A stretch of DNA of 45,098 bases from an uncultured Spirochaetales bacterium (GCA_964615045.1 CAZTOE010000002.1:1-45098), one strand, 5' to 3'. Counted from the stretch's first letter, positions 7,221 through 29,965 are shown. Numbers and translations are program-made. The notes: generated by a model from the sequence alone, not told the origin.

Positions 7221-8296
7221 CAGCGCAGCTTCAGCGACGAGAGGGCGACGAGGGAGAGGATGATCGAAATGATCCAGAATCGAACCACGATCTTCTGTTC
7301 CGGCCAACCCAGGCGCTCGAAGTGATGATGGATCGGCGCCATCAGGAAGACGCGCCGACCCGTCAGTTTGAACCAGAACACCTGGATCATCACCGAGAGC
7401 GCTTCGGCGACAAAGACGCCACCGACCACGGCGAGCAAGATCTCCTGCCGGATGACCACCGCGATCGTGCCGAGCGCACCCCCCAGTGCGAGGGATCCGA
7501 CGTCGCCCATGAAGAGCTGGGCGGGATACGTGTTGAACCACAGAAAACCCAGGCCACCCCCGACCAGGGCGCCGCAGAAAATTGGGATCTGGTCGGCCCC
7601 CGGGACCCCCTTGATGCCCAGATATTCTGCGATCCCCGCATGCCCGGCGGCGTAGGAGAGCAGCAGGAACGTGCCCGCAGCGATCATCACCGGTCCGATG
7701 GCGAGACCGTCGAGCCCGTCGGTGAGGTTGACCGCATTACTGGTCCCCACGATCACGAGCACCGCCAGGGGAATATAGAAAGCCCCCACGTTCGGGGTGA
7801 AGTCCTTGAAAAAGGGCACGGCGAGTTCTTTGTCGAAACTCGGATCGGTATAGATGGCGAAGGCCACCACACCGGCGATCAGAAGCTGCCAGAAGATCTT
7901 GAGGCGCGCGGAGAGGCCCGCCTCATTGCGGCGCTGAGTGACCTTGCGGTAGTCGTCGATGAAGCCGAGCAAGCCGTACGCCACCGTCACGCTAATGACG
8001 ATCCAGATCAAGCGATTGGTGAGATTGGTCCACAGGAGCACCGACACCAGGAGGGCCAGCAGGATCAAGAGGCCGCCCATCGTGGGCGTGCCCGCCTTCG
8101 ATTGGTGGTCCGGCCCGATCTCGCGAATCGGCTGACCCGCTCGCAGCGAGGCGAGGGCGCGGATCAACGAAGGGCCGACCAGGAAGGCGAGAAAGAGCGC
8201 CGTCAGCGTCGCGGCCGCGGTGCGGAACGTGACGTAGCGGAACACATTGAAGCCGCCGAATTCCGAAGCGAGGGGGACCAGCAGGTGATAGAACAT
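7220..8296 (-). CDS. mraY: Phospho-N-acetylmuramoyl-pentapeptide transferase MraY
   Basis: Begins MFYHLLVPLASEFGGFNVFRYVTFR, with NAVNLTDGLDGLA and PIHHHFE motifs. ATG at 8296 lies 7 nt after the murF stop. The track start at 8389 would overlap murF. Confidence 0.92.
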   Translation of the reverse strand: MFYHLLVPLASEFGGFNVFRYVTFRTAAATLTALFLAFLVGPSLIRALASLRAGQPIREIGPDHQSKAGTPTMGGLLILLALLVSVLLWTNLTNRLIWIVISVTVAYGLLGFIDDYRKVTQRRNEAGLSARLKIFWQLLIAGVVAFAIYTDPSFDKELAVPFFKDFTPNVGAFYIPLAVLVIVGTSNAVNLTDGLDGLAIGPVMIAAGTFLLLSYAAGHAGIAEYLGIKGVPGADQIPIFCGALVGGGLGFLWFNTYPAQLFMGDVGSLALGGALGTIAVVIRQEILLAVVGGVFVAEALSVMIQVFWFKLTGRRVFLMAPIHHHFERLGWPEQKIVVRFWIISIILSLVALSSLKLR

Positions 8297-8303
8297 CCCG
8301 CGC

Positions 8304-13320: not shown

Positions 13321-13724
13321 GGTGCCGACTCCGCGCCCGTCGCGACGGCCCGACGCCGGATGTCGATCACCCGTTCCGGCGCGACGAGGCCGAGGGCCGC
13401 CGCCTCGCGTTGCAGGAGCATGGGATCGCGCAGACGTTGCAGCTCGACCGTGAGAAGTTGTTCCTCTTCGCGCAGCTCGCGCTCGCTGCGCAGCGCCTCT
13501 GCCAGTCGGTAGCGCAACGCGATGGAATTGGTCCGCAAGGACGCGAGCCCCGTTGCCGTGACCGCCAGGCCGACTCCCACGGCGACCAGCCACCCTCGAA
13601 GCGGTCGGGTCACGCGGGGTGCGACCCAGTCGCGGCTGCCGCTCGGTGCGCGCATGGCGGAACGAAGCGAGGCTCCTCGGCGAAACGACCGGCGCCGGGT
13701 CACCGTCGCGGTCCGCACACCCAT
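13317..13724 (-). CDS. ftsL: Cell division protein FtsL (bitopic, coiled-coil)
   Basis: About 135 aa: a basic N-terminus, a TM helix (WLVAVGVGLAVTATGLASL), then a coiled-coil region (RYRLAEALRSERELREEEQLLTVELQRL). It lies between rsmH and ftsI. ATG 13724..13722 overlaps the rsmH stop (TGATG). Confidence 0.8.
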   Translation of the reverse strand: MGVRTATVTRRRSFRRGASLRSAMRAPSGSRDWVAPRVTRPLRGWLVAVGVGLAVTATGLASLRTNSIALRYRLAEALRSERELREEEQLLTVELQRLRDPMLLQREAAALGLVAPERVIDIRRRAVATGAESAP

Positions 13725-14683
13725 CAGGCCGCCTCCACGAGGCGCTCGGCGGCGCGTAAGCGCGCCGAGCGCGCCCGCGGATTCGCCTCCACCTCGACGG
13801 CGCTCGGCCGCGTCGGGCGGCGCGTGATCACGCGGAGCCGCGGCTCGCGCCCGCAGGTGCACACGGGCTGACGGGGAGGGCAGATGCAGCCGCGCGCCTC
13901 CTCACGGAAATAACGCTTGACGACGCGATCCTCGAGCGAGTGATAGGAGATCACGACGAGGCGTCCTCGCGGAGCAAGCACCGAGACCGCACCGGAAAGG
14001 CCTTCGCTGAGTGCGCGCAGTTCGTCGTTCACGGCGATGCGCAAAGCTTGAAACACCAATGTGGCGGGATGATGACGTCGCCCGCGCCCGACTCCGGCGG
14101 CATCGACCGCGCGCAAAAGGTCCCCCGCGGTTCGCAGCGGCTGGTCTCGCCGCCTCTCCACCAGCGTGTGCGCGAGCCGCGCCGCGCCGGGAAGTTCTCC
14201 GTACTCGCGCAACCAATGCTCGAGGTCGTGCGCCGAAGCGCTCGCCAGAAGCTCGCGTGCGCCGTGGTCGAGGCGCCGGTCCATACGCATGTCGAGCGGC
14301 GTCTCCTCTGCGCTCTCGGCGGCGAAACGGAAGCCGCGTTCGGGACGGTCGAGTTGGTGCGATGAGACACCCAGGTCGAAGAGCACGCCGTCGACTCGAC
14401 CTCCACCGCACTGCTCCACCGCCGTTTCGATGAAACGGAAGGAGCACCTCAGCAAACACAAGCGGTCGGCGTCGGCCGCGAGGCGCCGGCGACTCGTTTC
14501 TAGGGCTTCTTCATCGACGTCCAGGCCGATCAGTGTTCCGGTCGGGCCGATCGCTTCGAGGATCGCCGCGGCGTGTCCTCCGCCGCCGATGGTCCCGTCG
14601 ACAACCCGAGCGCCCGGGCGCAGCGCAAGGTGATGAAGGCTCTCGGTGAGAAGAGCCGGCCGGTGGTATCGCGAACCGGCCAC
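13724..14683 (-). CDS. rsmH: 16S rRNA (cytosine1402-N4)-methyltransferase RsmH (MraW)
   Basis: Carries the SAM motif VDGTIGGGGHA, plus FDLGVSSHQLD and SYHSLEDR. The start codon is GTG at 14683. Confidence 0.92.
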   Translation of the reverse strand: MAGSRYHRPALLTESLHHLALRPGARVVDGTIGGGGHAAAILEAIGPTGTLIGLDVDEEALETSRRRLAADADRLCLLRCSFRFIETAVEQCGGGRVDGVLFDLGVSSHQLDRPERGFRFAAESAEETPLDMRMDRRLDHGARELLASASAHDLEHWLREYGELPGAARLAHTLVERRRDQPLRTAGDLLRAVDAAGVGRGRRHHPATLVFQALRIAVNDELRALSEGLSGAVSVLAPRGRLVVISYHSLEDRVVKRYFREEARGCICPPRQPVCTCGREPRLRVITRRPTRPSAVEVEANPRARSARLRAAERLVEAA

Positions 14684-14828
14684 GGATCGAATTCTCCCGC
14701 CGTTCCCGAACGGTCAAAGCCGCCCGAGAGACAGGGATGCCCCGGAGCCTCAGGCATGAATTCGCGGTCGCACCCCCCTTTGCTTCCGCGAACCACTAAA
14801 ACGAGGCTCCGGGGACACCCCCTCTCAA

Positions 14829-14850
14829 CCGGAGGCCATTCGGCCTCCGG
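14829..14850 (-). other. Perfect 9-bp GC-rich stem-loop in the mraZ-rsmH spacer
   Basis: CCGGAGGCC-ATTC-GGCCTCCGG read directly from the sequence. No U-tract follows on the transcribed (minus) strand, so it is not a canonical intrinsic terminator. Confidence 0.6.
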
Positions 14851-14874
14851 TCCCCCCCAGCGTTGAACTTCTCC

Positions 14875-14890
14875 GGAGCCCCGAGGCTCC
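14875..14890 (-). other. Second GC stem-loop in the mraZ-rsmH spacer
   Basis: GGAGCC-CCGA-GGCTCC (6 bp, extendable by one C-G pair), located 33 nt downstream of the mraZ stop. Confidence 0.45.
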
Positions 14891-14922
14891 GTTCATTTCC
14901 GGCAAGCGACCCGAGGGGCCGC

Positions 14923-15363
14923 TCACAAACCATTCTTCGCCACTTCTTGCGAGATCTCGCGGAATCGCGCCTGCGTTCGCGTGAGCTGCTCGTCGAAGCG
15001 CGCTTTGTCCCAGATTTCGATGCGCGGACCGACCCCGGCCAGGGTGGCTTCCTTCTCGAGCTTCGCGTGTTCGCGCAGATAGGGCGGAATCAAGATGCGC
15101 CCCTGCGCATCGACGGGACACTCGACCGCGCCCGAAATCATGAAGCGTTGAATTTCCTGCCCCTCGAGCATTAGCGGGTCGACCCGCACGAGGCGCTCCT
15201 CGAAGGCAGCCCAATCGCCGTACGGGTAGAGCGCCAGACACTCGAGCATGTTGGTGAGAATCGGAGGTCGATCGCTGCGCCGGGCCAGTTCGGCGCGAAA
15301 GGGGGCCGGGATGCTGAGCCGGCCCTTGGAATCGATGCTGTGCGCGTAGCGGCCTCGAAACAT
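14923..15363 (-). CDS. mraZ: Transcriptional regulator MraZ
   Basis: Begins MFRGRYAHSIDSKGRLSIPAPFRAEL, with a second SpoVT/AbrB-like repeat (VDAQGRILIPPYLREHA). It is 146 aa and is the first gene of the dcw cluster. Confidence 0.93.
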   Translation of the reverse strand: MFRGRYAHSIDSKGRLSIPAPFRAELARRSDRPPILTNMLECLALYPYGDWAAFEERLVRVDPLMLEGQEIQRFMISGAVECPVDAQGRILIPPYLREHAKLEKEATLAGVGPRIEIWDKARFDEQLTRTQARFREISQEVAKNGL

Positions 15364-19172: not shown

Positions 19173-19634
19173 CTATGCGGTCGCCCGCTCGGGGTGAGGC
19201 TGCGGACCCGGGCTCGCGATCCCGAACTCCCACAGCAGTTCCCGGAGCCCCAGAAACGCGCGCAGCACTGCCCGGGCCTCCGGGTCGCCCTGGCTTCGTG
19301 ATTCCCAGCGAGTGATCTCGGCGTCAAGCGCGTCGGCCAGATCGGTCAGCAGGTCCTGTGCCGGGTCGCTGCCCGGCCGCACGCCGGCTTGGATCTGTTC
19401 GAGGAGTTCCACCGCCGAACGCAGCGTTTCGACCCGCGCCGCCCCGCGTCCAAGCGCCAGAAAACTCGCGACGTCGAGCAGCGCCCGCAGGAGAAGCAGG
19501 GTTTCCGCAAGCGCCGCCCGCGCGTGATAGGCGGCGGAAGCGATCGCGGCCTCGAGGCTTTCGGTATCCCCGGCCGCGTGGGTGGCGGTGGCGTCGGTGG
19601 CCTGCGGTTCCGGTCGTCGAGCTCGCCCCGTCAC
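19173..19634 (-). CDS. Hypothetical small Ala/Leu-rich helical protein, translationally coupled to the ArsA-like ATPase
   Basis: In-frame GTG 19634..19632 overlaps the stop of the upstream ATPase gene (GTGA). The sequence looks helical and coding-like (SLEAAIASAAYHARAALAETLLLLRALLDVASFLALG...DLLTDLADALDAEITRWES). I recognise no family. Confidence 0.5.
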   Translation of the reverse strand: MTGRARRPEPQATDATATHAAGDTESLEAAIASAAYHARAALAETLLLLRALLDVASFLALGRGAARVETLRSAVELLEQIQAGVRPGSDPAQDLLTDLADALDAEITRWESRSQGDPEARAVLRAFLGLRELLWEFGIASPGPQPHPERATA

Positions 19635-20809
19635 GCTGGGCGCTCCCTCTCTTGGGCGAAGATCCAAGTCGCCACCCGGACCAGACTGTCGAAGTCGTGG
19701 ATGTCCTCGACGAGTTCGGGAACCCGCCGTACGAAACCGCCGATCTCTCGCATGCGCGCTTCGAGTGGTCGGCAGGCCTCTCGTTCAGCCCGGGTTGCCG
19801 CAGCGTAGCGATCCGCAGCGACGAGCGCCGTGCGCGCCCAGGTTTCGGCACTGCCCGTTGGAGCGCTTGCGGCGAGCAGCTCCGCGAGCTTGGCGACATC
19901 GCCCGCCGCGACGCCCGCGGCGGGAATCGCATCGCCCGGCCATGGGTGCGTGCGGTTGAGCACCACCCCCGCCAGGGGGACGCTCTGCGCCTCCAGTTGG
20001 CTGAGCAGCTCCAGGCCGGCACGCATTGCGGCGGGGCTCGGCGCCGCGGCCAGCACGAAGGCGCTACCAGGCCCGCGGAGTTGTTCTTCGACCTGCTTCG
20101 CGTGAGAGCGAAACCCCCCCGACATCTGCTCAAACGCGAGCAGAAACTCGGTGATGTCCTCCAGGAAGCCCACTCCGCTGACGCGTTCGATGAGCCGCAG
20201 TACGCGGTCCGTGCCGCGCGCAAAGAGCCGCATGCCGAGCCTGCCCGCGGCGAAAGCGGGGTGCACCAAAAGCTGGACCACGCTGCTGTCGAGGAGCGCC
20301 AGCATGCGATGCGGTGCCTCCAAGAAATCGAGGGCGTGTTCGGAGGGTGGGGTGTCGACCACGATCAAATCGAAGTCGCTGCGTTGCGAGAGTTGGTACA
20401 CGCGTTCCATCGCCGCATACTCGGCGCTTCCCGCTAGTGCCTCCGACAAGTGGCAGTAGATCGGGTTTTGCAGCACGCGTTGCCGCGCGGCTTCCGACGC
20501 CGCGAAACGCTCCACCAGCTCGTCGAAGGTACGCTTGGTATCGAGCATGGAGGCGAAAAGCCGACCCCCCGTCTGGCCGCGCGGGGGGGCAAGGCGCTCC
20601 GGTTCGATCTCGCGCAGCTGGTGGTCGAGGGGGCCGGCTCCCAACGCGTCGGCCAAACGTCGAGCGGGGTCGATCGTCAGCAGTGCGACGCGGCGGCCAC
20701 GGCGAGCCGCCTCGAGAGCGAAGCTGGCCGCCAGCGTCGTTTTTCCGACCCCGCCGGTCCCGACGAAGGCCACGAGCCGCTTTTGGTTGATGAGCCTCTC
20801 CGGGTCCAT
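19631..20809 (-). CDS. ArsA/Get3-like P-loop ATPase (second of a tandem pair)
   Basis: Begins MDPERLINQKRLVAFVGTGGVGKTTLAASFALEAARRGRRVALLTIDPARRLADALG, with DLIVVDTPPSEHALDFL (switch region). ATG 20809 lies 8 nt after the upstream stop. The track start at 20953 lies inside the upstream gene. Confidence 0.8.
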   Translation of the reverse strand: MDPERLINQKRLVAFVGTGGVGKTTLAASFALEAARRGRRVALLTIDPARRLADALGAGPLDHQLREIEPERLAPPRGQTGGRLFASMLDTKRTFDELVERFAASEAARQRVLQNPIYCHLSEALAGSAEYAAMERVYQLSQRSDFDLIVVDTPPSEHALDFLEAPHRMLALLDSSVVQLLVHPAFAAGRLGMRLFARGTDRVLRLIERVSGVGFLEDITEFLLAFEQMSGGFRSHAKQVEEQLRGPGSAFVLAAAPSPAAMRAGLELLSQLEAQSVPLAGVVLNRTHPWPGDAIPAAGVAAGDVAKLAELLAASAPTGSAETWARTALVAADRYAAATRAEREACRPLEARMREIGGFVRRVPELVEDIHDFDSLVRVATWIFAQERERPA

Positions 20810-20817
20810 GGCGGCGC

Positions 20818-21801
20818 TCACGGCGCGGGGCTCTCCGGCGCGAGTAGCGCGTTGGCGAGTAGCGCGAAGGACTCCGCGCCGGCGGGTCCCCCGGGCTCGT
20901 AGGGGAGGGGTACGATCGGAAGGCCGGTCGCTCGCGCGAGTTCTCCAGTCCAATGCTCACTGCGTTCGCTGCGGACGCGCCAATCGCGTACCGCGTGCCG
21001 CAATGCCTCGTTGGGGGCTAGCTGGTCCGCCCGTTTCAGGGCTTGTTCGAGCTCGGCCAGAGCGACTCCGGGCGGCGGCGAGTCGAAGGCGTTCATGACG
21101 ATCCGATCGACGGGCACCTGAACCTCGTCGCGCATACGCGCCACGAGTTCCACGGTCTCGCGGGCGGGGAGCTCTTCGGGCCTGGCGACGGGCAATAGCA
21201 GGGTGCGCTTTGGATCACGGACCAGGGCTTCAACCCAGCCGGCATGGCGGCGCAACGGGCCCGCCCGGACGGCTGCCGAGGCGACGCGAGGCACGTCGAG
21301 AAACGTCAGCCCGTGACCAGTCGCCGGAGCGTCGACGACGACGAGGTCGGGGCGCGACAAGGGATCGCCCCGCTCGACCATGTGCCAGATTTTTCCCAGT
21401 GTGATCAATTCCCTCCAGCCGGGTGCGCCCTCCAACAACTGGTGAAAACCACGGTGGGCAACCACGCGCCGGACGAGGCGCCCGAAACCAAATTGCAGCG
21501 TCAGGTACTCGGCCAGCGCGTCGAAGGGGTCGAGCCGCAGGGTCTCGACGCCATCGGAGGACGTTTCGCGCTCCCGGGTAGAGGTGCCAAGCCGGGCCGC
21601 GGAGAGCAGCGAGGGGACCTCGCTCGATCGCCCGGTCTCAATCACCAGAACTCTCCGCCCCCCTCGCGCGCCCGCCACGCCCAGCGCCGCACAGACCGTG
21701 GTTTTCCCGGTCCCTCCCTTGCCCGTCACGACGATCAGGCGACGATCGAGAAGCGAGGGGAGGACCCGGCGTCGGTCGGATGTCTGTTGCGGTTGGGCCA
21801 A
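20818..21801 (-). CDS. ArsA/Get3-like P-loop ATPase (first of a tandem pair)
   Basis: Carries LIVVTGKGGTGKTTVCAALG and DLVVVDAPATGHGLTFLDVP. The start is uncertain: TTG 21801 (preferred), TTG 21939, ATG 22008 or the 22029 track start. The two longest would collide head-on with the divergent gene starting at 22001. Confidence 0.7.
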   Translation of the reverse strand: MAQPQQTSDRRRVLPSLLDRRLIVVTGKGGTGKTTVCAALGVAGARGGRRVLVIETGRSSEVPSLLSAARLGTSTRERETSSDGVETLRLDPFDALAEYLTLQFGFGRLVRRVVAHRGFHQLLEGAPGWRELITLGKIWHMVERGDPLSRPDLVVVDAPATGHGLTFLDVPRVASAAVRAGPLRRHAGWVEALVRDPKRTLLLPVARPEELPARETVELVARMRDEVQVPVDRIVMNAFDSPPPGVALAELEQALKRADQLAPNEALRHAVRDWRVRSERSEHWTGELARATGLPIVPLPYEPGGPAGAESFALLANALLAPESPAP

Positions 21802-22000
21802 GAGCGTCAGGCGGGGCCGATTCGCGGCAGAGTAGGGTGGGAAGTGTTTCGTCGGCGGGCCGCGAGTGGGGATTCGGATCGCCCTCAAGCGCTCTCCCGG
21901 CGCGGCCGAAAGAGACGTGGGTTCGCAGACTTGCCGCAAGCTAGCACACGTCGACTGCGGCCTGATCCAGGAAGCCCGCGCGCGGCTCGGAGGAACTCGG

Positions 22001-23662
22001 TTGGTCATCCGCTGTGACCAGTGCAACACCCGCTTTCATCTCGACGATGCGCGGATCCCCGAGCGCGGGGCACGGGTCCGCTGCTCGAAGTGTCAGCATT
22101 CCTTCTACGTGAAGCGCGAACCGACGCCTGCCGTCGAGGCTCCGCCCGACGCCGGCACGCAGCCCGCGCCCTTGACTGCTCCCGCGGAGGCACCCCCGGC
22201 CCCGGTCTCTGCCCTGCATCCTGAGCCGAACCAGGCCAGCGACCTCGAGGCCCCCCGTGCAGCTCCTTCCGAGGCAGCTTCCGTCGATTCGTCCGCTTCC
22301 GCTGCGCCCGAGCCAAGCGAAGCGCCCGCCAGCAAGATGGAGCGATCGCCCGAGACCCGAGCCGCAACCCGAGCGGCCCCTGCGGAACGCATGGAGTCGG
22401 CGCGACTCGAAACCGGGGAAGCCCAGGGCTCGGAGCCCGGCGCTGCGCCCGACCTCCTGGCCGAGGGGGAGCAGGCGGAGGGCGACGAGGGCTGGGAGTT
22501 TGGTGAGACCGATGTTCGGTTGGGAACGGCGGAGAAGCACCAAGAGCCGTCCGACGAGGACGATCCCCTCGCAGCCGCGCTGCGAGAAGCGGAAGCGGAG
22601 CGTGTGCATGCCGCTGCGATCGGGGGAGCAGACGAAGCGCCGAGCGAGATCTCGGTTCCCGCGCCCGAAGCGGCGCCGCTTGCCGAAACTGGCGCCTCCT
22701 TGGCTCCCGAGCTCGCTCCCGGCATGGAACTCGGCGCGGCGGCTGCTTCGAGCGACGCGCTGGCCGCTGCCAGCGAACCCAGCCCAGACCTCGGTCCAGC
22801 ACGCGCGCGCGATCCCAATGAAGACTCCCTTGCCGCAGTGGGAGATCCTTCCAGCTGGGATCTCTTCGCCGGCCTCTCCGAGGAGGCGGTCAGTCAGCAC
22901 GACCCGGTGGCGCCGCAAGCTCAGTCGGCGCCCGCAGCCCAGACACCGCCCTCCGAGCGGGAGCCTCTTTTTGCAAGCGACGTCGAGCAGGCCGCGGCCC
23001 GTCCGGATTTTGATGACGACCAGCTCTTTGACGCCCCCCTCATCCCCAACGCGCCAGAACCGGCCCACTCCGATTGGGTGGCCGCAGCGGTCGGATGGCC
23101 CCTAGTGCTGATGCTGATCGCGTTCACGACGTGGAGCGAAATGCGTCCGGTTCCGGCCGTGAGCGCCCCGCATCCGATTTCGCTGGCACGGGGCTTTGAG
23201 GTCGCAGGGCTTCGCAGCCGGATTCTCGAGAATGCGATCGGGGGTTCACTGCTGATCGTCTCCGGAGAGCTCCGCAATACGAGTCCCCAGCGACAGGCCC
23301 TGCGATCCACGCTGGCGATCCGTCTCCACGACCCTGCCGGCGTCGCGCTCGAAGACGCGCATGCCCTCGCGTGCGCGGCCCTGGACGAGCACACGGTTCG
23401 GCTCAAGGATCCCGCGGTCTTGCGAGCCGAGCAGCAGAGGGGGGCCCGCGAACTGGCCCTCCGCGAGCTCGGTCCCGGGGAGATCGTCCATTTTGACGCG
23501 GTGTTCGACCGCCTTCCGGGGCGCGCGGTGCGCTTTTCCTTCTTGGAGGAGCGGGTTCCGCTCCACGTGCTCGGGGCGTTGGAGAGAGCCTCATCCAAGC
23601 CCGCACAGACCGATGCGGAGCTTACGAATCTCCCTTTGAAAGCTCTTCCTTCTGGGGAGTGA
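22001..23662 (+). CDS. MJ0042-type zinc-ribbon protein with long acidic disordered linker, one TM helix and DUF3426-like C-terminal domain
   Basis: TTG 22001 follows GGAGGA 7 nt upstream. The N-terminus ([36 protein letters not shown]) has the CxxC...CxxC zinc-ribbon pattern. This is followed by about 300 aa rich in A/P/E/S, then a TM helix ([20 protein letters not shown]), then a C-terminal beta-rich domain ([12 protein letters not shown]...). Confidence 0.75.
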
Positions 23663-23903: not shown

Positions 23904-25274
23904 ATGATTTCCATGTCCGTCTTCAAAGCCTACGACGTGCGCGGAACGGTTCCGGACGAGTTCGGCCCCGAGATCGCCTACCGGGTCGGCTGGGCGACCG
24001 CACATCACTTGCGTGCGAAGCGCATTGCCGTCGGCCGCGACGCGCGCGAGAGCTCGCCCGCGATCGCGACCGCCGTGATGAGCGGAATCGCCACGGCCGG
24101 TGCTGAGCTCGTCGACCTCGGCCTGGTTTCAACCCCGATGCTCTACTTCGGCGTCGAGCGCCTTGCCCTTGACGCGGGTGTGATGGTGACGGCCTCCCAC
24201 AACCCCGCCCAATACAACGGGCTCAAGATCTGTCGCGAGCACGCCATTCCCGTGGGAGGGGAGAGCGGGTTGCGGGAGATTGCAGCGCTCTGTGAGCGCG
24301 CGCCCGCGGCGTCGGAACGGGCGCCGAGCCCCGAAGTCGTCGATCTGCGCGAAGCCTACGTCGAACACGTGCGCTCGGTCGGCGATCGCTGCGAACCGCT
24401 CCGAGTCGCCATCGATTGTGGGAACGGCATGGCGGCAGTCGGGCTCGAACCCCTGTTGGAGCACATGCCGCTCCGCGTCGAGCGCCTCTATTTCGAACCC
24501 GATGGTCGTTTCCCCAACCATCCCGCGGATCCCCTGAACGCCGAGAACCTGCGCGACTTGATCGGCGCGGTAATCCGTTGCGATGCGGATCTCGGCGTGG
24601 CCTTCGACGGTGACGCCGACCGCGCGATCTTTGTCGACGAGAAAGGCGCGCCAGTGAGTTCCGACCTCATGACGGCGCTCCTGGCCCGCGTCCAGCTCGA
24701 GCGCCACGGACCGGGACCCGTTCTCTATGACTTGCGCTCGAGTCGCGCCACGCCCGAAGCGATCCGCGACGCGGGCGGTACGCCCGAGCGCAGTCGCGTG
24801 GGACACTCATTCATCAAGGCGCGCATGCGCGAGGTGGGCGCGGTCTTCGGTGGCGAACTATCCGGTCACTTCTACTTCCGTTTCACGCCCACCCTGGTAG
24901 CGGACGACGGTGTGGCCGCTTTCGCCGCGCTACTCGACCTGATGGCCCGAGAACGGAAGCCCCTTTCGGAGCTGTTGCGACCGCTGCGTCGCTACGCGGC
25001 GAGTGGCGAAATCAACCGCCGCGTCGCTGACGTTCCCGGCCTGCTGGCGGTGATGGAAGAGCGGTATCGGGATGGAGAGATCGCCCACCTGGATGGGCTC
25101 TCGGTCGACTACCCCGATTGGTGGTTCAACCTGCGCCCCTCGAATACCGAGCCTCTCGTGCGCCTCAACCTCGAAGCCAAGACCGCGGCCGCGATGAGCG
25201 AACACCGCGACCGCATTCTGGCCGAGATCGAAGGGCTTGCCAGCAACTCCGAAGCACCTCCTCAGCACTCCTGA
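23904..25274 (+). CDS. Phosphomannomutase/phosphoglucomutase (alpha-D-phosphohexomutase family)
   Basis: Carries FKAYDVRG, the phosphoserine loop TASHNPAQYNGLK, the metal loop FDGDADR, and GGELSGH. ATG 23904 has GGGGAG 9 nt upstream. Confidence 0.9.
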   Translation: MISMSVFKAYDVRGTVPDEFGPEIAYRVGWATAHHLRAKRIAVGRDARESSPAIATAVMSGIATAGAELVDLGLVSTPMLYFGVERLALDAGVMVTASHNPAQYNGLKICREHAIPVGGESGLREIAALCERAPAASERAPSPEVVDLREAYVEHVRSVGDRCEPLRVAIDCGNGMAAVGLEPLLEHMPLRVERLYFEPDGRFPNHPADPLNAENLRDLIGAVIRCDADLGVAFDGDADRAIFVDEKGAPVSSDLMTALLARVQLERHGPGPVLYDLRSSRATPEAIRDAGGTPERSRVGHSFIKARMREVGAVFGGELSGHFYFRFTPTLVADDGVAAFAALLDLMARERKPLSELLRPLRRYAASGEINRRVADVPGLLAVMEERYRDGEIAHLDGLSVDYPDWWFNLRPSNTEPLVRLNLEAKTAAAMSEHRDRILAEIEGLASNSEAPPQHS

Positions 25275-25363
25275 GCGTATTCCGGTCATCCGACGTACGC
25301 CCGGCTCGTCACGCGCGCGGCGTCGCCTTCGCCACGGTGCGTCGCGTCCGGGCGCTTCGGGTC

Positions 25364-26182
25364 CTAGGCCTCGCACTCGAGATGTCGAGCCAAGAAACGC
25401 GCCAGTGCGGCCAGACCGGCCTCGCCGACGTCGCCGCCCTCAACCCACACCACCTCGCGCGGCTCGGCCGCCGCGCGGTGCAGCGACTCGGCGGTCCGTT
25501 CCGGCACGTGCTCGTCGCCCCTGGCGTTCACGAATAGCAGGGGGCGCGGCGCAATCCGCGCTACCGCCTCGCTCGGGTCGAGGGCTCCGATACCCCGCCC
25601 CGCCAAGGCCAGCGCGACGGCCCGAATCCGCGGATCGGTGGCCCCCCAATGTGCCCCCACGATGGCACCCAGCGAGAAGCCGACCAGGGCGACGCGCTGG
25701 GCGTCGATGTCGGGAAGCGCCAGCAATGCGTCGAGACAGCGGGCGCCGTCGAGCAGGGCCTGGCGCAAAAACTCCGCGCACAGGCGCTCGCGCTCCGGGT
25801 CGAGAAGTTCGCGATCACCGAACGCGTCCAGGAAGGTCTGGCTCAACTTCGCGCTGGCGCGTTCACCGTGGAGCGGCAGATCGAAGCTCGCGACCCCACA
25901 GCCTCCGGCGATCCAGTCGCGCGCGCACGCGGTGAGAAACGGAGTGTCCTTGGCCCCTCCGGTGCCGTGGGCCATGAGGATCAGCGGCACTGCCGCGTGC
26001 ACTGCCTCGGCTTGGATCGGAAGCCACAACACGCCCGGGATCCGGTCGCCGCGGCTCGAGTACTCGAAGCGAAACTCGCGGGTTCGGCCGCCTGGGGCGC
26101 CTGGACGCTCCTGAAGCCACAGGGCGAGAGGTTCTGCGTCCCAGAGCGCGGATCCGGGTTGGGCGGGCGCGGCGCTCGGCAT
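25364..26182 (-). CDS. Alpha/beta-hydrolase-fold protein (dienelactone-hydrolase-like)
   Basis: Contains LILMAHGTGG, the nucleophile elbow GFSLG, and NARGDEHVP (acid residue region). I see no clear His in the usual C-terminal position (VEGGDVGEAG). Confidence 0.65.
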   Translation of the reverse strand: MPSAAPAQPGSALWDAEPLALWLQERPGAPGGRTREFRFEYSSRGDRIPGVLWLPIQAEAVHAAVPLILMAHGTGGAKDTPFLTACARDWIAGGCGVASFDLPLHGERASAKLSQTFLDAFGDRELLDPERERLCAEFLRQALLDGARCLDALLALPDIDAQRVALVGFSLGAIVGAHWGATDPRIRAVALALAGRGIGALDPSEAVARIAPRPLLFVNARGDEHVPERTAESLHRAAAEPREVVWVEGGDVGEAGLAALARFLARHLECEA

Positions 26183-26244
26183 GGCGGCGGAGTGTACGGC
26201 CCCGCGCCGATCCGGGCGACGCAGAGGCTCGCGCGAGGGCGCTT

Positions 26245-26877
26245 TCAGGCGGCTGCGAGGGCGCGCGCGATCTCGCCCATCGCGCCCGGCGCGCGGTCAT
26301 CCGGCCCGTGCAACAACGAGCGCGCCAACCACGGGCCCCCGGGCAGGACTCCCGCGTGGCGCAAGGTGAGGGTCTCCTCGCGCGCGGCCGCGAGGCGGCG
26401 GAAGGAGGTCGCCGCTTGGGCTCCGCCGCCGGAGCCCAGAAACACCAGATCGGCCCGTGCGCCCGGCCGTAGGCGCGCAAGGGCGCGCAGCCTTGCGGCG
26501 GTGCGCTCGAGAGCGCTCGGGTGAGTTGGGGTCCAGAGGAGCGTGCGGTCGAGCGGTGGAAGCAGTTCGCGGGCCGTTTCGGGGCAGAGCCCTTCCGCGG
26601 AAAACGGGGCCAGAACGAAGTCGAAGCCGGCCAGGTCCGCCCACGGTTTGGGAGCGGGAGGGGCCACAATCAGCACCCGCAGGTCGTGTTCGCGTAGCGA
26701 CATCGCCAACCAGCTGAGCAGCGCGGGCTCAACGAGGTCGCTGGGTCCGGTTGGAATCGCGAGCACGCGGGCAGGGCCAGCCGCTCGACTTTGCGCGTTC
26801 GGACCTTGCGTTGGAGCCGCGGGCGTGGGGGCAGAGTCCAGGTACAGGTCCAGTACGTCGCCGAGGTTTTTCGCCAT
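26245..26877 (-). CDS. Hypothetical protein downstream of the ParA-CBM48 gene (alpha/beta pattern, no P-loop)
   Basis: ATG 26877 lies 10 nt after the ParA stop. It begins MAKNLGDVLDLYLDS..., has a P/A-rich linker, then RVLAIPTGPSDLVEPALLSWLAMSLREHDLRVLIVAPP..., which resembles a MinD/ParA beta-alpha start but lacks GKT. The track's upstream extension to 27225 overlaps ParA in another frame. Confidence 0.5.
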   Translation of the reverse strand: MAKNLGDVLDLYLDSAPTPAAPTQGPNAQSRAAGPARVLAIPTGPSDLVEPALLSWLAMSLREHDLRVLIVAPPAPKPWADLAGFDFVLAPFSAEGLCPETARELLPPLDRTLLWTPTHPSALERTAARLRALARLRPGARADLVFLGSGGGAQAATSFRRLAAAREETLTLRHAGVLPGGPWLARSLLHGPDDRAPGAMGEIARALAAA

Positions 26878-26887
26878 GCGCAACTCG

Positions 26888-27940
26888 CTAACGCACCACG
26901 AGCCGAGAAGCGGGCGGGCCGAGGCCCTCTTGAACCTGTTCCGGGTTGTCCGGGTCCGGCCGCCATTCGCCATCGACCACGTAGCGGTATTCGTAGGTGC
27001 CCGGGCGTAGATGGAGAATCTTCCGCCATACACGGCCTTCGCCCTCCGGGAGGCTGACCGACTCCACCCCGCGATCGGGGATCCAGCCGTTGAAATTCCC
27101 GGCGATGCGGACGTCCAAGGCATCCGCGTCCCGAAATTCGACCACGACCTCCCGCGTCGGTGCCGTGACCGGAGGCTGGCTGGCTTGCACCTCGGCTGCC
27201 AACGCGGCGTAGTCGACGGCCCCATTCGCCCGCCGCCTAAAGGCTACGATTGGAACACCTCGCCGCGCTGCCTCCCGGAGTGCCACGTTGAAGCGGATCA
27301 CGGTGTCGAAGCAGAGATCGCCAAAGATGGAGCGGATTTCCCCCAACGTCTCACGCCCGAAACGCGTCCGGCCGTCGTAGAGGGTGGAGAGGACGCGGAC
27401 CTCGGGATCGCGCCCGATGCGCTCCGACAGCAGCGTGATGGTCTCGAGCACCTTGTGGGCGCCCTGAATGGCGAAGTGGCTCGTTTCGAGGGGGATGATG
27501 ATCTCGTCGGCTGCGCACATCGCGTTGAGGGTCAGGATCCCGATGTTGGGTGGGCAATCGATCAGCGCATAGTCGTAGGTGTCCTGGACGTCGGTCAGGG
27601 CTTCAGCAAGGCGACGGTTCCCTCCCTCGCGGTGCTCATGGGCCAGACGTTGCTCGAGCGCCGCCAGCACTACGCTCGAAGGTGCGACGTGGAGCCGCTC
27701 TCCTACCGGAATCGCGATCTCGGCGATTCCCGGACCTGCGCCCGGATCCGCGAGCACCTCGTAGAGATTCTCATCGGCGGCTTCCGGATCAATGCCCAAG
27801 GCCATCGTAGCGTGCGCTTGAGGGTCGAGATCCACCACCAGTACCGATGAACCATCCGCCGCGAGGCAACCGGCCAGGTTCACCGTGGTGGTCGTTTTCC
27901 CGCAGCCGCCTTTTTGGTTGACCACAGCGATCACGCGCAT
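26888..27940 (-). CDS. ParA/MinD-family ATPase fused to a C-terminal CBM48 (AMPK-beta glycogen-binding)-like domain
   Basis: Begins MRVIAVVNQKGGCGKTTTTVNLAGCLA (deviant Walker A with the signature Lys), followed by VLVVDLDPQ and YALIDCPP. The C-terminal 89 aa (26891..27157) read VVVEFRDADALDVRIAGNFNGWIP...GTYEYRYVVDGEWRPDPDNP. ATG 27940 has GGGGAGAG upstream. Confidence 0.8.
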   Translation of the reverse strand: MRVIAVVNQKGGCGKTTTTVNLAGCLAADGSSVLVVDLDPQAHATMALGIDPEAADENLYEVLADPGAGPGIAEIAIPVGERLHVAPSSVVLAALEQRLAHEHREGGNRRLAEALTDVQDTYDYALIDCPPNIGILTLNAMCAADEIIIPLETSHFAIQGAHKVLETITLLSERIGRDPEVRVLSTLYDGRTRFGRETLGEIRSIFGDLCFDTVIRFNVALREAARRGVPIVAFRRRANGAVDYAALAAEVQASQPPVTAPTREVVVEFRDADALDVRIAGNFNGWIPDRGVESVSLPEGEGRVWRKILHLRPGTYEYRYVVDGEWRPDPDNPEQVQEGLGPPASRLVVR

Positions 27941-27993
27941 GAGAGCTCTCCCCACGGCCGCATGGGCCTTTGTGTCAGCGGGGCGCAAGTTTG

Positions 27994-28422
27994 CTAGCCG
28001 GTGCGCGCTCCCGCCGATGGGATCGGTACCCTCCGCCGCGGACTGCGGCCCCGCGCCGCTGCGCGTCGCGCGGCCCGGGCCTCGATCGCCTTGCGAAGCG
28101 ATGACACCTCGAAAATCCACTCTCTTCCGCTCACGGCGTAAAACGAGTGGTCATCTTTCAGCAGCAGCACCACGTCGCCCGTCGCGACGAAGACCAAGTC
28201 CGAGAGGGGGCGATCGACGGTCGGAAGCACACGGCGGAGCGCGCGGATACTGCCGCGGATTCGCTGTACCGAGACGCCCGCGTCGATCAGTTGCTTGGTG
28301 GCGCCGAGCGCCACCAGGTCCTCAAAGGTATAGCGGTGGTGGCCGCCCGGCGTCTGGGCCGAAGGACGGACGAGATCGGTCTGCGCCCAGTACTGGAGCT
28401 GCCGCCGCGAGACGCCGAGCAC
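27994..28422 (-). CDS. MerR-family HTH protein (minimum extent; probably starts further upstream at a non-canonical codon)
   Basis: LGVSRRQLQYWAQTDLVRPSAQTPGGHHRYTFEDLVALGATKQLIDAGVSVQRIR is a MerR-type winged HTH. The first canonical start (GTG 28422) removes helix 1. The frame stays open upstream to a TGA at 28575..28573. Confidence 0.7.
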   Translation of the reverse strand: MLGVSRRQLQYWAQTDLVRPSAQTPGGHHRYTFEDLVALGATKQLIDAGVSVQRIRGSIRALRRVLPTVDRPLSDLVFVATGDVVLLLKDDHSFYAVSGREWIFEVSSLRKAIEARAARRAAARGRSPRRRVPIPSAGARTG

Positions 28423-28601
28423 CGCCGAGACCTGGCCGGTTCGGAAGAGCCTCTCGAGCTCGCCGTGTCCAGCGCTGGCACTCCGACGACGCTCAACCGA
28501 GTTGGCGCGCTCGCGGGATCTAGCCCGCTCCGGCGAAGCGTGCGCAATCGTGTGGCTGACAGCGGACAGCGTTCACCCCCCTGACACGTCCGCGCGCCAA
28601 C

Positions 28602-28630
28602 ACCCTAGAGCGGGGTTCGGGTCCCGTCAA
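28602..28630 (-). promoter_or_regulatory. Candidate sigma70-type promoter for the MerR-ParA operon
   Basis: On the minus strand: TTGACG (28630..28625), a 17-nt spacer, then TAGGGT (28607..28602). It lies within the only AT-richer stretch of this intergenic region. Confidence 0.35.
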
Positions 28631-28774
28631 CAAAAGCTATCTCAATTTCGGGGGTTTCCGTGAAAATTTGCGGGTTGGCTTCAGGGTGTCTCCGGGGCGC
28701 GGCCCACTGCTGCCGGTGGAGCAGGCGATCGGGCGGCTCTCCCGCCAAGCGCTCGCTACGTTAGCCTCGTCGCG

Positions 28775-29965
28775 ATGGAGCGGGTGACAAGCGGCGCCGA
28801 ACAAGGGCGCGCAGGTAGAGATCGCGAACGCCTTCAAGTCGACCAGGGAGGCCAGGCGCGCCCCTTCATGCGCGGGATCCTGGTGCACTCGCTGATGGCG
28901 CGAGGGCTCGGCTTCGAGGACGCCTATGGGGTGGCGAACGTCATCCGCGACAAGCTCAAGGGCCGCGGCGTCGTGGCCCGCGAGGTCCTCCGTGAAGCGG
29001 TGCACGAGGAGTTGGAGCAGCGCGGCTTGGCAGCCGACGCCAAAGCCTCGCTTTCCCCCACCATCGAGGTGCGCTCGGACGGGGGCATGAGCCCCTTCTC
29101 GAAGGGGTTTCTCTCCCAGTCCCTGTTGGCGGCGGCGATCGATCCCAACGACGCGTTTGATGTGGCACGGGAGATCGAGGGAACCCTGGTGCGTCAGGGC
29201 GTCACCGACATCGGCCGCCGTGAGCTCCGACGGACGGCGTACCGGAATCTCGAGCGTCGCTTCGGGCCCGCGACGGCAGAGCGCTATTTGGTGTGGCGGC
29301 ACTTTCACCGTCCGGATCGACCGGTGATCTTGCTGTTGGGCGGGGCGACGGGTTCCGGAAAGACATCGCTCGCGGTCGAAGTTGCGCACCGGTTGGACGT
29401 GCAGCGCGTGATCTCGACCGACTCCATCCGCCAGGTCATGCGGATCATGCTCTCACCGGATCTGGTGCCCGCGATCCACGCCTCTTCCTACGATGCCTAC
29501 CGCGTGATCGGGCCAGTGGCGGAAGAAGAGGATCCGGTCATCGCCGGTTTCGAGGCAGGGGCCAAGATTGTCAGCGTCGGCGTGCGAGCCATGATCGAAC
29601 GCGCCATCGCCGAGAACACCAGCATGGTGATCGACGGCGTGTCGATCGTGCCCGGGCTGCTCGACTTCCATCGCTATCACCAGGACGCCCATATCGTCTT
29701 CCTCCTCGTCGCGAATCTCGATGAGCAAGCCTACCGAAGGCGTTTCGAGGCGAGGGCTCAGAGCAGCCAGCGCGCACCCCATCGCTACCTTCGGAACCTG
29801 AAGTCGATCTTGCGGATCCAAGATCACTTGCTCGAATTGGCCGATCGTCACGATATCCCGATCGTTGACAACGAGTCCCGCGACGACTCCGTGCTCTCGA
29901 TCATCAAGCACGTCACGGGAACGCTGCGCAAAGCCGAAGAGTTCGATGCGGACGAGTTGCTCTAG
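28775..29965 (+). CDS. 2-phosphoglycerate kinase-family P-loop kinase with two N-terminal ATP-cone-like repeats
   Basis: Two repeats (QVDQGGQARPFMRGILVHSLMARGLGFEDAYGVANVIRDKL and EVRSDGGMSPFSKGFLSQSLLAAAIDPNDAFDVAREIEGTL), then VILLLGGATGSGKTSLA (Walker A) and VISTDSIRQVMR. This matches the COG2074-like family layout. Confidence 0.7.
   Translation: MERVTSGAEQGRAGRDRERLQVDQGGQARPFMRGILVHSLMARGLGFEDAYGVANVIRDKLKGRGVVAREVLREAVHEELEQRGLAADAKASLSPTIEVRSDGGMSPFSKGFLSQSLLAAAIDPNDAFDVAREIEGTLVRQGVTDIGRRELRRTAYRNLERRFGPATAERYLVWRHFHRPDRPVILLLGGATGSGKTSLAVEVAHRLDVQRVISTDSIRQVMRIMLSPDLVPAIHASSYDAYRVIGPVAEEEDPVIAGFEAGAKIVSVGVRAMIERAIAENTSMVIDGVSIVPGLLDFHRYHQDAHIVFLLVANLDEQAYRRRFEARAQSSQRAPHRYLRNLKSILRIQDHLLELADRHDIPIVDNESRDDSVLSIIKHVTGTLRKAEEFDADELL

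Follow-up and report, generated by a model that had tools for sequence, protein, structure and literature searches.

A 45,098-nt stretch of DNA from an uncultured Spirochaetales bacterium (hereafter the window) encodes a ParA-type ATPase that carries a predicted glycan-binding module on the same polypeptide. In this 350-aa protein, which we call ParA-CBM, an ATPase domain that sequence comparison assigns to the Soj/ParA type and not to the MinD type is joined to a C-terminal domain modelled as a beta-sandwich superposable on solved CBM48 domains. Database searches indicate that the fusion is one deep and widespread family. The feature conserved with it across phyla is a partner gene whose product has the N-terminus LGRGLEDVSHLFLS, not an operon with a MerR-type gene. 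We consider it plausible, if unproven and held with a little less than even confidence, that ParA-CBM is an orphan ParA/Soj system coupling alpha-glucan granules to an ATP-driven positioning cycle.

Organization of the ParA-CBM locus

ParA-CBM is the middle of three co-directional genes on the minus strand. The ORF coordinates confirm the gaps of 53 and 10 nt reported in the first-pass annotation of this DNA (Table 1), the second being the distance from the ParA-CBM stop codon to the start of the gene for a 210-aa protein (p210). An alpha/beta hydrolase gene follows on the same strand, 62 nt downstream of p210. Its product scores 263 bits with the clade HMM. Fourteen Myxococcota-clade loci, and the related locus L083, have this gene downstream of the module, and the transcription unit may include it as a fourth member. 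The first-pass annotation had further described an operon of the MerR-like gene, ParA-CBM and the 210-aa partner; this description suits the window but does not extend beyond one Myxococcota clade, where alone the three-gene order is kept. Neither c1, the second downstream gene of other Myxococcota loci, nor the sigma-factor gene of those loci is present anywhere in the window, and no carboxysome genes were found in it.

Table 1. Features of the ParA-CBM locus, in window coordinates
Feature	Position	Strand	Basis
Promoter-like element, 5' of the MerR-like gene	28602..28630	-	Conservation with L083
MerR-type HTH gene, first of the cluster	27994..28569	-	Pfam MerR_1
ParA-CBM gene, 350 aa	26888..27940	-	Pfam AAA_31, CbiA, AMPK1_CBM
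ParA-CBM ATPase domain, aa 1-251, Soj/ParA type	27188..27940	-	Pfam and PDB sequence matches
ParA-CBM Pro-rich linker, aa 252-263	27152..27187	-	Variable columns across the family
CBM48/AMPK-beta-type module (predicted), aa 264-350 and stop codon	26888..27151	-	Pfam AMPK1_CBM, model
p210, predicted degenerate MinD/ParA-fold partner, 210 aa	26245..26877	-	Partner-family HMM, model
p210 N-terminal peptide AKNLGDVLDLYLDS	26833..26874	-	Aligns to partner-family consensus
Alpha/beta hydrolase gene	25364..26182	-	Pfam Abhydrolase_6
PGM/PMM gene	23904..25274	+	All four PGM_PMM domains (Pfam)

A CTG start at 28569 would give the MerR-like protein 191 aa; the first canonical start codon, a GTG at 28422, would give 142 aa. 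The ORF stays open to 28572 and holds no ATG, GTG or TTG 5' of the HTH, so the end coordinate 28569 given originally implies a CTG start. Pfam MerR_1 (PF13411) matches the 191-aa form over profile positions 1-67 (2e-14; 53.9 bits, cutoff 21.6) and the 142-aa form over positions 9-67 only. The best PDB sequence matches, Alr3614, RacA, GlnR/TnrA and CarH, are likewise MerR-family HTH proteins, in line with the earlier identification of a MerR-like neighbour. The window protein scores 236 bits with the clade HMM, and of the 23 Myxococcota-clade loci, the window counted, 17 have a homologue upstream of ParA-CBM. MerR-family proteins normally have, besides a C-terminal effector domain, a long coiled-coil helix for dimerisation, and they act at promoters with a spacer of 19-20 bp. 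Because the C-terminal half of the protein has no family match in Pfam or NCBIfam and the upstream element (TTGACG and TAGGGT) has a 17-nt spacer, the protein appears MerR-like in its HTH only. This element is near-identical, base for base, in the window and L083; after it comes a G6 run (28581-28576), 6 nt before the CTG at 28569. It does not pass a strict sigma-70 consensus scan, and a sigma-70 promoter and terminator scan of 25200-28900 gave nothing above shuffled background; we infer only that it is a candidate promoter of the MerR-like gene. Most simply, the MerR-type protein would regulate transcription of the unit within this Myxococcota clade.

The ATPase domain is of the Soj/ParA type

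The ParA/MinD-type deviant Walker A originally recognised in the middle gene is borne out by Pfam matches to AAA_31 (2e-51) and CbiA (1e-19). Conservation was counted over 82 members of the family, drawn from about 10 phyla. The deviant Walker A NQKGGCGKTT (K10-GGCG-K15-T, with the signature lysine shared with chromosomal Soj/ParA) is invariant in 82/82, as are D37/D39 of Walker A' and D128 of Walker B. In searches of PDB sequences, the best matches of the ATPase were the ParA family protein 8RAY (154 bits), Thermus Soj (137 bits; 1WCV/2BEK) and H. pylori Soj (128 bits; 6IUB), whereas MinD reached 65 bits and McdA 55 bits. The closest solved relatives are thus Soj/ParA-type proteins. Cys13, which lies within the P-loop (KGGCGKT), and His43 are essentially invariant across the family and serve as its signature residues.

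In B. subtilis Soj, R189 and R218 are basic residues for non-specific DNA binding. With residues numbered after a B. subtilis Soj sequence, 81/82 members keep R191, which corresponds to R189, and 73/82 have Lys or Arg at position 220, which corresponds to R218; with the same numbering, the window protein has R191 and Ala220. The ATPase domain is followed by a linker of about 12 residues, whose columns have no dominant residue across the family and vary in length. In the model of the domain that comes next, the mean pLDDT over the initial 10 residues is 59.

The C-terminal domain is a predicted CBM48 module

Residues 268-335 match Pfam AMPK1_CBM (PF16561) with E = 2.1e-10 and 41.1 bits against a cutoff of 26.8. 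A phmmer search of PDB sequences with the last 100 aa returned mainly AMPK beta GBDs, together with SEX4, LSF1, Sip2 and two pullulanase-type enzymes, and Planctomycetota members of the family also match PF02922 (CBM_48). The AF2 model of the domain (pLDDT 90.6) has 7 strands, and 50 of the 50 Foldseek PDB matches listed were AMPK-beta/Sip2/SEX4 CBMs with TM up to 0.82 (TMt 0.7-0.82 against isolated CBM48 domains). The model and the Pfam score both agree with the AMPK-beta/isoamylase-N glycogen-binding fold that had been proposed for this region.

In the family alignment, W286 (82/82), W326 (82/82), R/K319 (80/82) and N/D344 (79/82) align to W100, W133, K126 and N150 of AMPK beta1, which we take to be its glucan-contact residues. 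The family thus shares with the AMPK beta CBM and the starch-binding CBM48 of SEX4 and LSF1 the Pfam family, the predicted fold, the two stacking Trp and the Lys/Arg; the difference is that the module sits on a kinase scaffold or a phosphatase in those proteins and on a P-loop positioning ATPase here. The window protein has W286, R319 and W326, but Ala at 344, the N150-equivalent position. With Ala344 and Ala220, this copy may bind both glucan and DNA more weakly than the family norm. ParA-CBM has no signal peptide and no membrane segment, which points to a cytoplasmic protein, and the obvious cytoplasmic alpha-glucan is glycogen.

ParA-CBM forms a widespread family with no ParB detected nearby

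Two protein searches returned 7,411 and 7,944 proteins that passed the E-value cutoffs, and the best 120 clusters listed in each all carry PF16561. The family occupies at least 586 loci in species-representative genomes; none of the named matches comes from a cultured organism, all being MAGs. Its members are publicly named chromosome partitioning protein or AAA family ATPase, and the former annotation is probably misleading. These names, like the best similarity to chromosomal Soj/ParA, are what would be expected if the protein were simply a ParA for chromosome or plasmid partition to which a further domain had become attached incidentally, a reading that we nevertheless judge very improbable. 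No Spo0J-type ParB was detected at 1e-3 by tblastn in 83 loci plus the window with a Spo0J query sequence, and ParBc is not among the top families of a Pfam neighbour census. The ParA-CBM gene is surrounded by housekeeping chromosomal genes, not by the gidAB-parAB context, and has its own dedicated partner gene. Compared with ParABS, ParA-CBM lacks a ParB or parS context at these loci and has instead the C-terminal CBM48 and the invariant P-loop Cys; the retention of the extra domain with its ligand-contact residues across about 10 phyla argues that it is not incidental.

The Pfam census covered 148 neighbouring ORFs at 39 loci outside Myxococcota and Omnitrophota and contained no recurrent glycogen-metabolism gene; only sigma-70, CbiA and miscellaneous families recurred. 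At 18 Omnitrophota-type loci, ParA-CBM is preceded on its own strand by a gene for a GH57 alpha-glucan enzyme, and at L044 a GH57 gene lies downstream on the opposite strand. This adjacency is limited to Omnitrophota-type loci, and the ParA-CBM proteins encoded there share a mutual identity of only 40-84%. The phosphohexomutase gene that had been cited as circumstantial support is indeed present near ParA-CBM in the window. As functional evidence, PGM/PMM was rejected, since its proximity is block synteny within one Myxococcota clade, shared with ATP-cone, M48 and hydrolase genes, and it is absent near ParA-CBM elsewhere. The support once drawn from it for a granule role accordingly falls away, and the window protein, as described above, also departs from the family at the N150 position.

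ParA-CBM adjoins an AlgE-like porin gene and genes for membrane-anchored partners in loci of the Omnitrophota and Planctomycetota types. BcsQ places cellulose synthase, and ParA-CBM resembles it weakly (Pfam CBP_BcsQ, 1.9e-8; NCBIfam TIGR03371). Since CBM48-like folds can double as protein interfaces, as at the AMPK ADaM site, the module could bind another glycan or a protein while the ATPase places a machine for polysaccharide synthesis or export. We find this quite improbable: no positions of the domain are better conserved than the equivalents of those AMPK beta residues that make stacking and hydrogen-bond contacts with alpha-1,4-glucan, Soj gives the ATPase a much better score than MinD or BcsQ-type proteins do, and the protein appears cytoplasmic, where glycogen would be the obvious ligand.

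A partner gene with a conserved N-terminal peptide accompanies ParA-CBM

The constant companion of ParA-CBM across phyla is a downstream gene encoding the N-terminus LGRGLEDVSHLFLS. A motif HMM gave 28 matches of at least 10 bits in the six frames of 894 kb, 27 of which lie 26-214 nt past a ParA-CBM stop codon, on the same strand, at 27 different loci. Of the neighbours seen in the window, the MerR-containing order is confined to one clade and the partner gene extends across phyla. The LGRGLEDVSHLFLS motif did not figure among the observations of the first-pass annotation. The proteins that bear the peptide include MinD-like, HTH_17, AAA and membrane proteins as well as c1, which is weakly NucS-like (its profile gave weak NucS_C / PD-(D/E)xK hints in PDB and Pfam, E = 0.05 and 0.002).

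The window's partner, p210, evolves fast, being 44% identical to its L083 orthologue compared with 83% for ParA-CBM. It has no Pfam or NCBIfam match, a word-indexed search returned only p210 itself, and tblastn against 80 loci found nothing. An exhaustive phmmer search of 1.84 billion representatives yielded one relative over most of its length and two further weak local matches in much longer proteins. Only the partner-family profile HMM (39 bits), not single-sequence searching, connected p210 to other proteins. Some members of that family keep a P-loop GxxxxGKS, and L063, the one member tested, matches Pfam CbiA above threshold. In the alignment the P-loop position is degenerated in the window and the Myxococcota clade and kept in other phyla. 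Modelled with modest confidence (pLDDT 63.8), p210 shows a beta-alpha repeat topology, with FlhG, FleN, ParF and MinD as best Foldseek matches. Profile and model together favour the original view of a MinD/ParA-like protein without GKT, and we describe p210 as a fast-evolving protein of predicted MinD/ParA fold that has lost its P-loop.

At its N-terminus, the peptide AKNLGDVLDLYLDS aligns to the partner-family consensus pRdLaDVlhlFls and is kept in L082 (MTRGVADVLALYLD) and L083 (MSGGLREVLALYLD), while the remainder of the protein diverges. Residues 5-15 form a helix in the model, and residues 20-32 (pLDDT <50) a predicted disordered linker. An N-terminal helix, a flexible linker and a MinD fold are also found in FlhG/FleN, the best structural matches of this pLDDT 63.8 model, and the FlhG helix activates another NTPase, FlhF; p210 differs in having no P-loop, membrane-targeting sequence or flagellar context. 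The LGRGLEDVSHLFLS motif also resembles the ParA-contacting N-terminal peptide of ParB, although ParB N-termini match the motif HMM only at the starting GRGL(E). The 14-residue motif HMM did not score on the window peptide alone (-1.3 bits). Given this sub-threshold score and the short ParB match, the motif and ParB assignments rest here on positional homology, and we propose the p210 N-terminal peptide as a candidate ParA-contact or activation peptide. Beyond the peptide the partners differ, ParB being a CTPase clamp and p210 a putative MinD-fold pseudo-ATPase.

The diversity of partners sharing this peptide suggests varied cargos or inputs around a constant ATPase. It would suit an AMPK-like glycogen sensor, in which glucan binding sequesters or modulates a ParA ATPase serving another process, for example nucleoid organisation, division-site placement or positioning of the variable partner's ligand. 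The lack of general glycogen-enzyme linkage in the 39-locus census and the AMPK-beta-like sequence and fold of the CBM are also compatible with a sensor, which we consider unlikely. No bacterial ParA is known to be regulated by glucan binding, and the tight GH57 linkage in one lineage suits a direct granule role better. A sensor also requires glucan binding, however, so the present evidence fits sensor and carrier alike.

A possible ATP-driven cycle on glycogen

For the favoured reading, in which alpha-glucan granules are coupled to a positioning cycle, ATP binding would produce a sandwich dimer, as the intact deviant Walker A, Walker A' and Walker B residues suggest. The dimer would bind the nucleoid non-specifically, which we infer from the family-wide conservation of the Soj R189/R218 equivalents, and would offer two CBM48 modules, each on a short flexible linker, that could hold glycogen particles more avidly than the single module of a monomer. 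The partner, here p210, would then dock through its N-terminal helix and stimulate ATP hydrolysis and release; in p210 this helix would be a locally degenerate version of the LGRGLEDVSHLFLS peptide found across the family, with its conserved Lys/Arg. As a net effect, glycogen granules or glycogen-bound enzyme assemblies may be spread along the nucleoid and inherited by both daughters. The first-pass proposal of direct tethering and partition of glycogen or alpha-glucan granules thus keeps part of its basis, in the retained contact residues and the GH57 loci, but not in any general association with glycogen genes. In diffusion-ratchet systems of the classical kind, what sits on the cargo is the ATPase-activating partner and not the ATPase; a cargo-binding domain on the ATPase fits that scheme imperfectly, which counts against the positioning reading.

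A second possibility, which we put forward as improbable, is that alpha-glucan is a third ParA/MinD matrix beside nucleoid and membrane, with ParA-CBM as an ATP-gated granule coat that a LGRGLEDVSHLFLS-type helix strips off. ATP-driven dimerisation would pair two weak CBM48 modules as MinD pairs weak membrane helices, so that the ATPase coats glycogen granules only in its ATP state. Such a self-organising coat or pattern could serve to recruit granules, to space or partition them, or to connect them with the nucleoid. In MinD/MinE, too, a C-terminal appendage sets what the ATP dimer sticks to and the dimer doubles weak binding, and the N-terminal helix of MinE triggers release, as proposed for p210. 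The MinD appendage is an amphipathic membrane-targeting helix, however, whereas that of ParA-CBM is a predicted folded all-beta CBM48 of 87 aa.

PHA granules are tethered to the nucleoid by PhaM/PhaF, a coupling of storage granule and nucleoid for even inheritance. The concept is the same, but PhaM and PhaF are passive DNA and granule binders without an ATPase and have no sequence relationship to ParA-CBM. More generally, the C-terminal region of ParA/MinD family members sets the matrix and the partner docks via its N-terminus (PMC11407121, PMC10241942). McdAB likewise consists of an orphan A/D ATPase and an adjacent fast-evolving partner that docks by its N-terminus (PMC10241942, PMC11407121), and acts on a non-DNA cytoplasmic body, as ParA-CBM likely does too. 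In McdAB the partner binds the cargo, whereas in ParA-CBM the ATPase carries the putative cargo-binding domain, and its match to McdA, given above, is weak. Neither PMC10241942 nor PMC11407121 mentions glycogen.

Our literature search, in which subscription journals were thinly covered so that absence is not proof, found no publication on a ParA-CBM48 fusion, ParA-dependent glycogen positioning or the SHLFLS motif; to that extent it agrees with the earlier statement that no ParA with a glycan-binding module has been characterised.

Implications

ParA/MinD ATPases are a general bacterial means of placing things correctly. To our knowledge, every member studied so far uses a separate adaptor to reach its cargo, and the surface that it patterns is DNA or membrane. 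In ParA-CBM, a predicted glycan-binding module is fused to the ATPase itself, with contact residues kept, in thousands of sequences from about 10 phyla. A conserved fusion of this kind points to storage polysaccharide as cargo or surface, and the family may organise or sense cellular glycogen stores. A dedicated ATP-driven system, if true, would open to experiment the question of what sets the number of glycogen granules in a bacterium, where they lie and how they are inherited. An ATPase with its CBM and a short activating peptide would also be a compact module that could serve the synthetic positioning of glucan-tagged cargo.

ParA-CBM joins a Soj/ParA-type ATPase to a predicted glucan-binding domain

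ParA-CBM comprises a ParA/MinD-class ATPase (aa 1-251; Pfam AAA_31 2e-51, CbiA 1e-19), a Pro-rich stretch (aa 252-263) and a C-terminal domain (aa 264-350). Against all PDB sequences, the ATPase scored highest with 8RAY (154 bits), Thermus Soj (137) and H. pylori Soj (128), while MinD (65 bits) and McdA (55 bits) scored more weakly. These comparisons place it clearly with the chromosomal Soj/ParA type. We aligned 82 ParA-CBM members drawn from related loci; the Pro-rich stretch is unconserved in this alignment, and the signature Lys, the Walker A Lys, the Walker A' Asp residues and the Walker B Asp are all invariant. Two arginines of Soj are implicated in non-specific DNA binding. The positions that we take to be their equivalents, matched through the B. 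subtilis Soj sequence and to be read as a lead, are R191 (Arg in 81/82 members) and position 220 (Lys or Arg in 73/82), the latter being Ala in the window copy. The Cys of the Walker A motif KGGCGKT, where Soj and MinD have Val, is invariant in all 82 members and His43, in DPQAH, is kept in 81; a redox or metal role for this Cys/His43 family signature is conceivable.

The first-pass annotation had assigned the last ~89 residues to the CBM48/AMPK-beta type, and both sequence and structure searches upheld this. Residues 264-350 match Pfam AMPK1_CBM at 41.1 bits (curated threshold 26.8), and their closest solved relatives by sequence are the glycogen-binding domains of AMPK beta1 and beta2, followed by the starch phosphatases SEX4 and LSF1, two pullulanase-type enzymes and yeast Sip2. 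In a confident AlphaFold2 model (pLDDT 90.6) the last 100 residues form a seven-strand beta structure, and all 50 matches listed by Foldseek against the PDB were carbohydrate-binding modules of AMPK-beta, Sip2 or SEX4, with TM-scores up to 0.82 to isolated CBM domains; the predicted fold is AMPK-beta-like. Equivalents of W100, K126, W133 and N150, the glucan contacts of AMPK beta1, are the best-conserved CBM positions across the 82 members (Trp 82/82, Lys/Arg 80/82, Trp 82/82, Asn/Asp 79/82). The window copy has Ala at the N150 equivalent, where the consensus of its closest relatives is Asn.

The fusion is widespread and its neighbourhood varies between phyla

Searches with the window protein and with a Planctomycetota member returned 7,411 and 7,944 proteins past the E-value cutoff, and the best 120 clusters of each all carried the CBM. 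The fusion forms one large family. At least 586 fusion loci are present in species-representative genomes, and the carriers include Myxococcota, Omnitrophota, Planctomycetota, Desulfobacterota, Gemmatimonadota, Acidobacteriota, Nitrospirota, Rokubacteria, Eisenbacteria and Margulisbacteria. The named sources are all MAGs, and the proteins are called only 'AAA family ATPase' or 'chromosome partitioning protein'.

In the window, re-derived ORFs gave the same coordinates as had been claimed for the three-gene cluster, with gaps of 53 and 10 nt, and a fourth gene follows after 62 nt (see table). The window has a G+C content of ~69% and is ordinary core chromosome; its relatives point to an uncultured Myxococcota-type bacterium as the source.

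Features of the minus-strand gene row and of the surrounding window
Feature	Position	Strand	Basis or remark
MerR-like gene	27994..28422	-	ORF, from first canonical start; frame open to 28572
ParA-CBM gene, 350 aa	26888..27940	-	ORF
Walker A motif of ParA-CBM	27896-27913	-	KGGCGKT
p210 gene, 210 aa	26245..26877	-	ORF
alpha/beta-hydrolase gene	25364..26182	-	ORF; co-directional with the other three
Upstream of MerR-like gene	28422-28630	-	TTGACG, 17 nt, TAGGGT, then G6 run 6 nt ahead of in-frame CTG (28569)
ATP-cone domain fused to P-loop kinase-like domain	28775-29965	+	AAA_33/Zeta_toxin-like; divergent from MerR-like gene
Two tandem ArsA/Get3-like P-loop ATPase genes	19631-22029	-	Pfam ArsA_ATPase 1.4e-20 and 3.7e-17
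Zinc-ribbon protein gene	21866-23662	+	Adjoins the ArsA/Get3-like genes
Division/cell-wall (dcw) cluster	455-15363	-	mraZ, ftsI, murE, murF, mraY, ftsW, murG-like; assigned only from ORF sizes, order and first residues

No ATG, GTG or TTG lies 5' of the HTH in the MerR-like gene of the window or in that of the related locus L083, and the stretch upstream of the gene is near-identical in the two; together these features suggest a start at CTG or another non-canonical codon. Automated gene calls shorten this gene (124 aa in L083). The divergent ATP-cone/P-loop gene is kept at the same position in 19 related loci, so that it and the ParA-CBM unit have their intergenic control region in common. 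The trio of paired ArsA/Get3-like genes and zinc-ribbon gene occupies the same relative position in L081 and L082.

The expectation that the fusion would recur with both of its neighbours held in part: the fusion and a downstream partner occur together across phyla, but the MerR neighbour does not extend beyond one Myxococcota clade, to which the MerR-ParA-partner arrangement is limited (MerR upstream in 17 of the 23 clade loci). Synteny across this clade includes the divergent ATP-cone/P-loop, M48 peptidase, hydrolase and phosphoglucomutase/phosphomannomutase (PGM/PMM) genes. In most of the clade a second downstream gene, c1, and a sigma-factor gene are present as well; neither was found in the window, and its closest relatives have the same shortened layout. 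The c1 product is a ~200-aa protein with weak NucS_C / PD-(D/E)xK-like signals and a conserved C-terminal LTPEExxEF tail, and in several phyla it bears the LGRGLEDVSHLFLS N-terminus itself. It is encoded by the first or second gene after ParA-CBM in L001-L018, L020, L023, L036, L041, L044, L046, L059, L064, L075, L080 and L081.

The downstream partner shares an N-terminal motif

The constant companion of the fusion across phyla is the gene right after the ATPase gene, whose product starts with LGRGLEDVSHLFLS or a close variant and is otherwise MinD-like, c1-like, an HTH_17 DNA-binding protein or an AAA protein. A motif HMM gave 28 matches of at least 10 bits in six frames of 894 kb, 27 of which, each from a different locus, lie 26-214 nt past the ATPase stop in the same orientation; since 20 of these instances had trained the HMM, the location of the matches is informative and not their number. 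ParB contacts and activates ParA through its N-terminal LGRGL peptide. The partner motif holds a conserved basic residue and its start resembles this peptide, over just four or five residues. No Spo0J-type ParB gene was found in the 83 loci or the window, and it is very improbable that ParA-CBM is an ordinary partition ParA, its Soj-type ATPase notwithstanding. In two Desulfobacterota loci (L033:7077-7520 and L034:1614-2966), the partner is made up of the motif at its N-terminus and, behind it, an HTH_17/MerR-like DNA-binding domain. This partner has the layout of a 'mini-ParB', and may correspond in function to the MerR-like protein that the Myxococcota clade encodes separately.

The window's own partner, p210, had no family match in Pfam or NCBIfam, and in a word-indexed search its sole match was itself. 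Exhaustive phmmer against 1.84 billion representatives gave one relative, aligned across most of p210, and two weak local matches, both to far longer proteins. Identity to the L083 orthologue is 44%, against 83% for the ATPase of the same locus. When ORFs around 81 related loci were clustered, a family of genes directly downstream of the ATPase gene emerged. The profile of this family scores 39 bits with p210 and can, in addition, be aligned to the beta1/P-loop/alpha1 region at the N-terminus of the ATPase. Some members keep a GxxxxGKS P-loop and one (L063) matches Pfam CbiA above threshold, whereas in the alignment this position is decayed in the Myxococcota members and the window (for example PVGDRDVVRAA and PTGPSDLVEPA). 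The p210 model is only moderately confident (pLDDT 63.8, pTM 0.62). In it a helix at the N-terminus is joined by a disordered linker to a core of beta-alpha repeats, and the best structural matches are FlhG, FleN, TP228 ParA/ParF and MinD. The profile link, P-loop decay and structural matches show that the initial impression of a MinD/ParA-like start without GKT was right. The p210 version of the motif, AKNLGDVLDLYLDS, is degenerate; its assignment comes from the family alignment and from conservation in L082 and L083, the motif score being insignificant.

Glycogen linkage and proposed mechanism

In 18 Omnitrophota-type loci the fusion gene is immediately preceded, on its own strand, by genes for GH57 and a small membrane protein, and L044 has a GH57 gene downstream of the fusion, on the other strand. 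Pairwise identity among the ATPases of the 19 GH57-linked loci is only 40-84%. Conservation of the putative glucan contacts and the Omnitrophota-type GH57 adjacency support a glycogen link, but a Pfam census covering 148 ORFs near the fusion in 39 loci of other phyla found no recurrent glycogen gene, which counts against it. It is quite unlikely that the CBM binds a different ligand and ParA-CBM serves at a polysaccharide machine. The nearby PGM/PMM gene, earlier cited as circumstantial support, was dropped: it is syntenic with the whole region inside one Myxococcota clade and so carries no functional weight.

The conserved Omnitrophota-type gene string runs AlgE-like porin, GH57, 190-aa single-pass membrane protein, ParA-CBM, 108-aa TM protein, EF-Tu-domain-2-like basic protein and DUF134 (L025, L031, L032, L037-L039, L042, L045, L050, L053, L057, L058, L060-L062 and L069-L071). 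The N-terminus of the 190-aa protein resembles EIYEHLANIYLD or EELAEVYFS, and may be a variant of the partner motif.

Among ParA/MinD proteins, the surface to which the ATP dimer binds is set by the C-terminal region of the ATPase, and a partner that docks by its N-terminus triggers release (PMC11407121, PMC10241942); neither paper mentions glycogen. Applying these two rules to ParA-CBM, we propose that its ATP dimer would offer a pair of CBM48 modules and, probably, a DNA-binding face, and that the N-terminal helix of the partner would trigger ATP hydrolysis. Our preferred reading, held tentatively at somewhat less than even confidence, is that ParA-CBM couples glycogen granules to the nucleoid for their distribution and inheritance. 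It is unlikely, by comparison, that glycogen itself is the patterned surface and ParA-CBM a MinD-like switch on the polysaccharide, or, with similarly low probability, that the CBM senses glycogen on behalf of a ParA whose task lies elsewhere. Nothing was found on a ParA-CBM48 fusion, ParA-dependent glycogen positioning or the motif in the literature covered, which takes in only a minority of subscription journals. The window copy calls for caution: its ATPase-CBM protein carries Asn-to-Ala and Lys/Arg-to-Ala substitutions, and its partner is strongly decayed. The ParA-CBM family is real and widespread, an uncharacterised branch of the ParA/MinD positioning systems that is distinguished by its built-in, predicted glucan-binding module.
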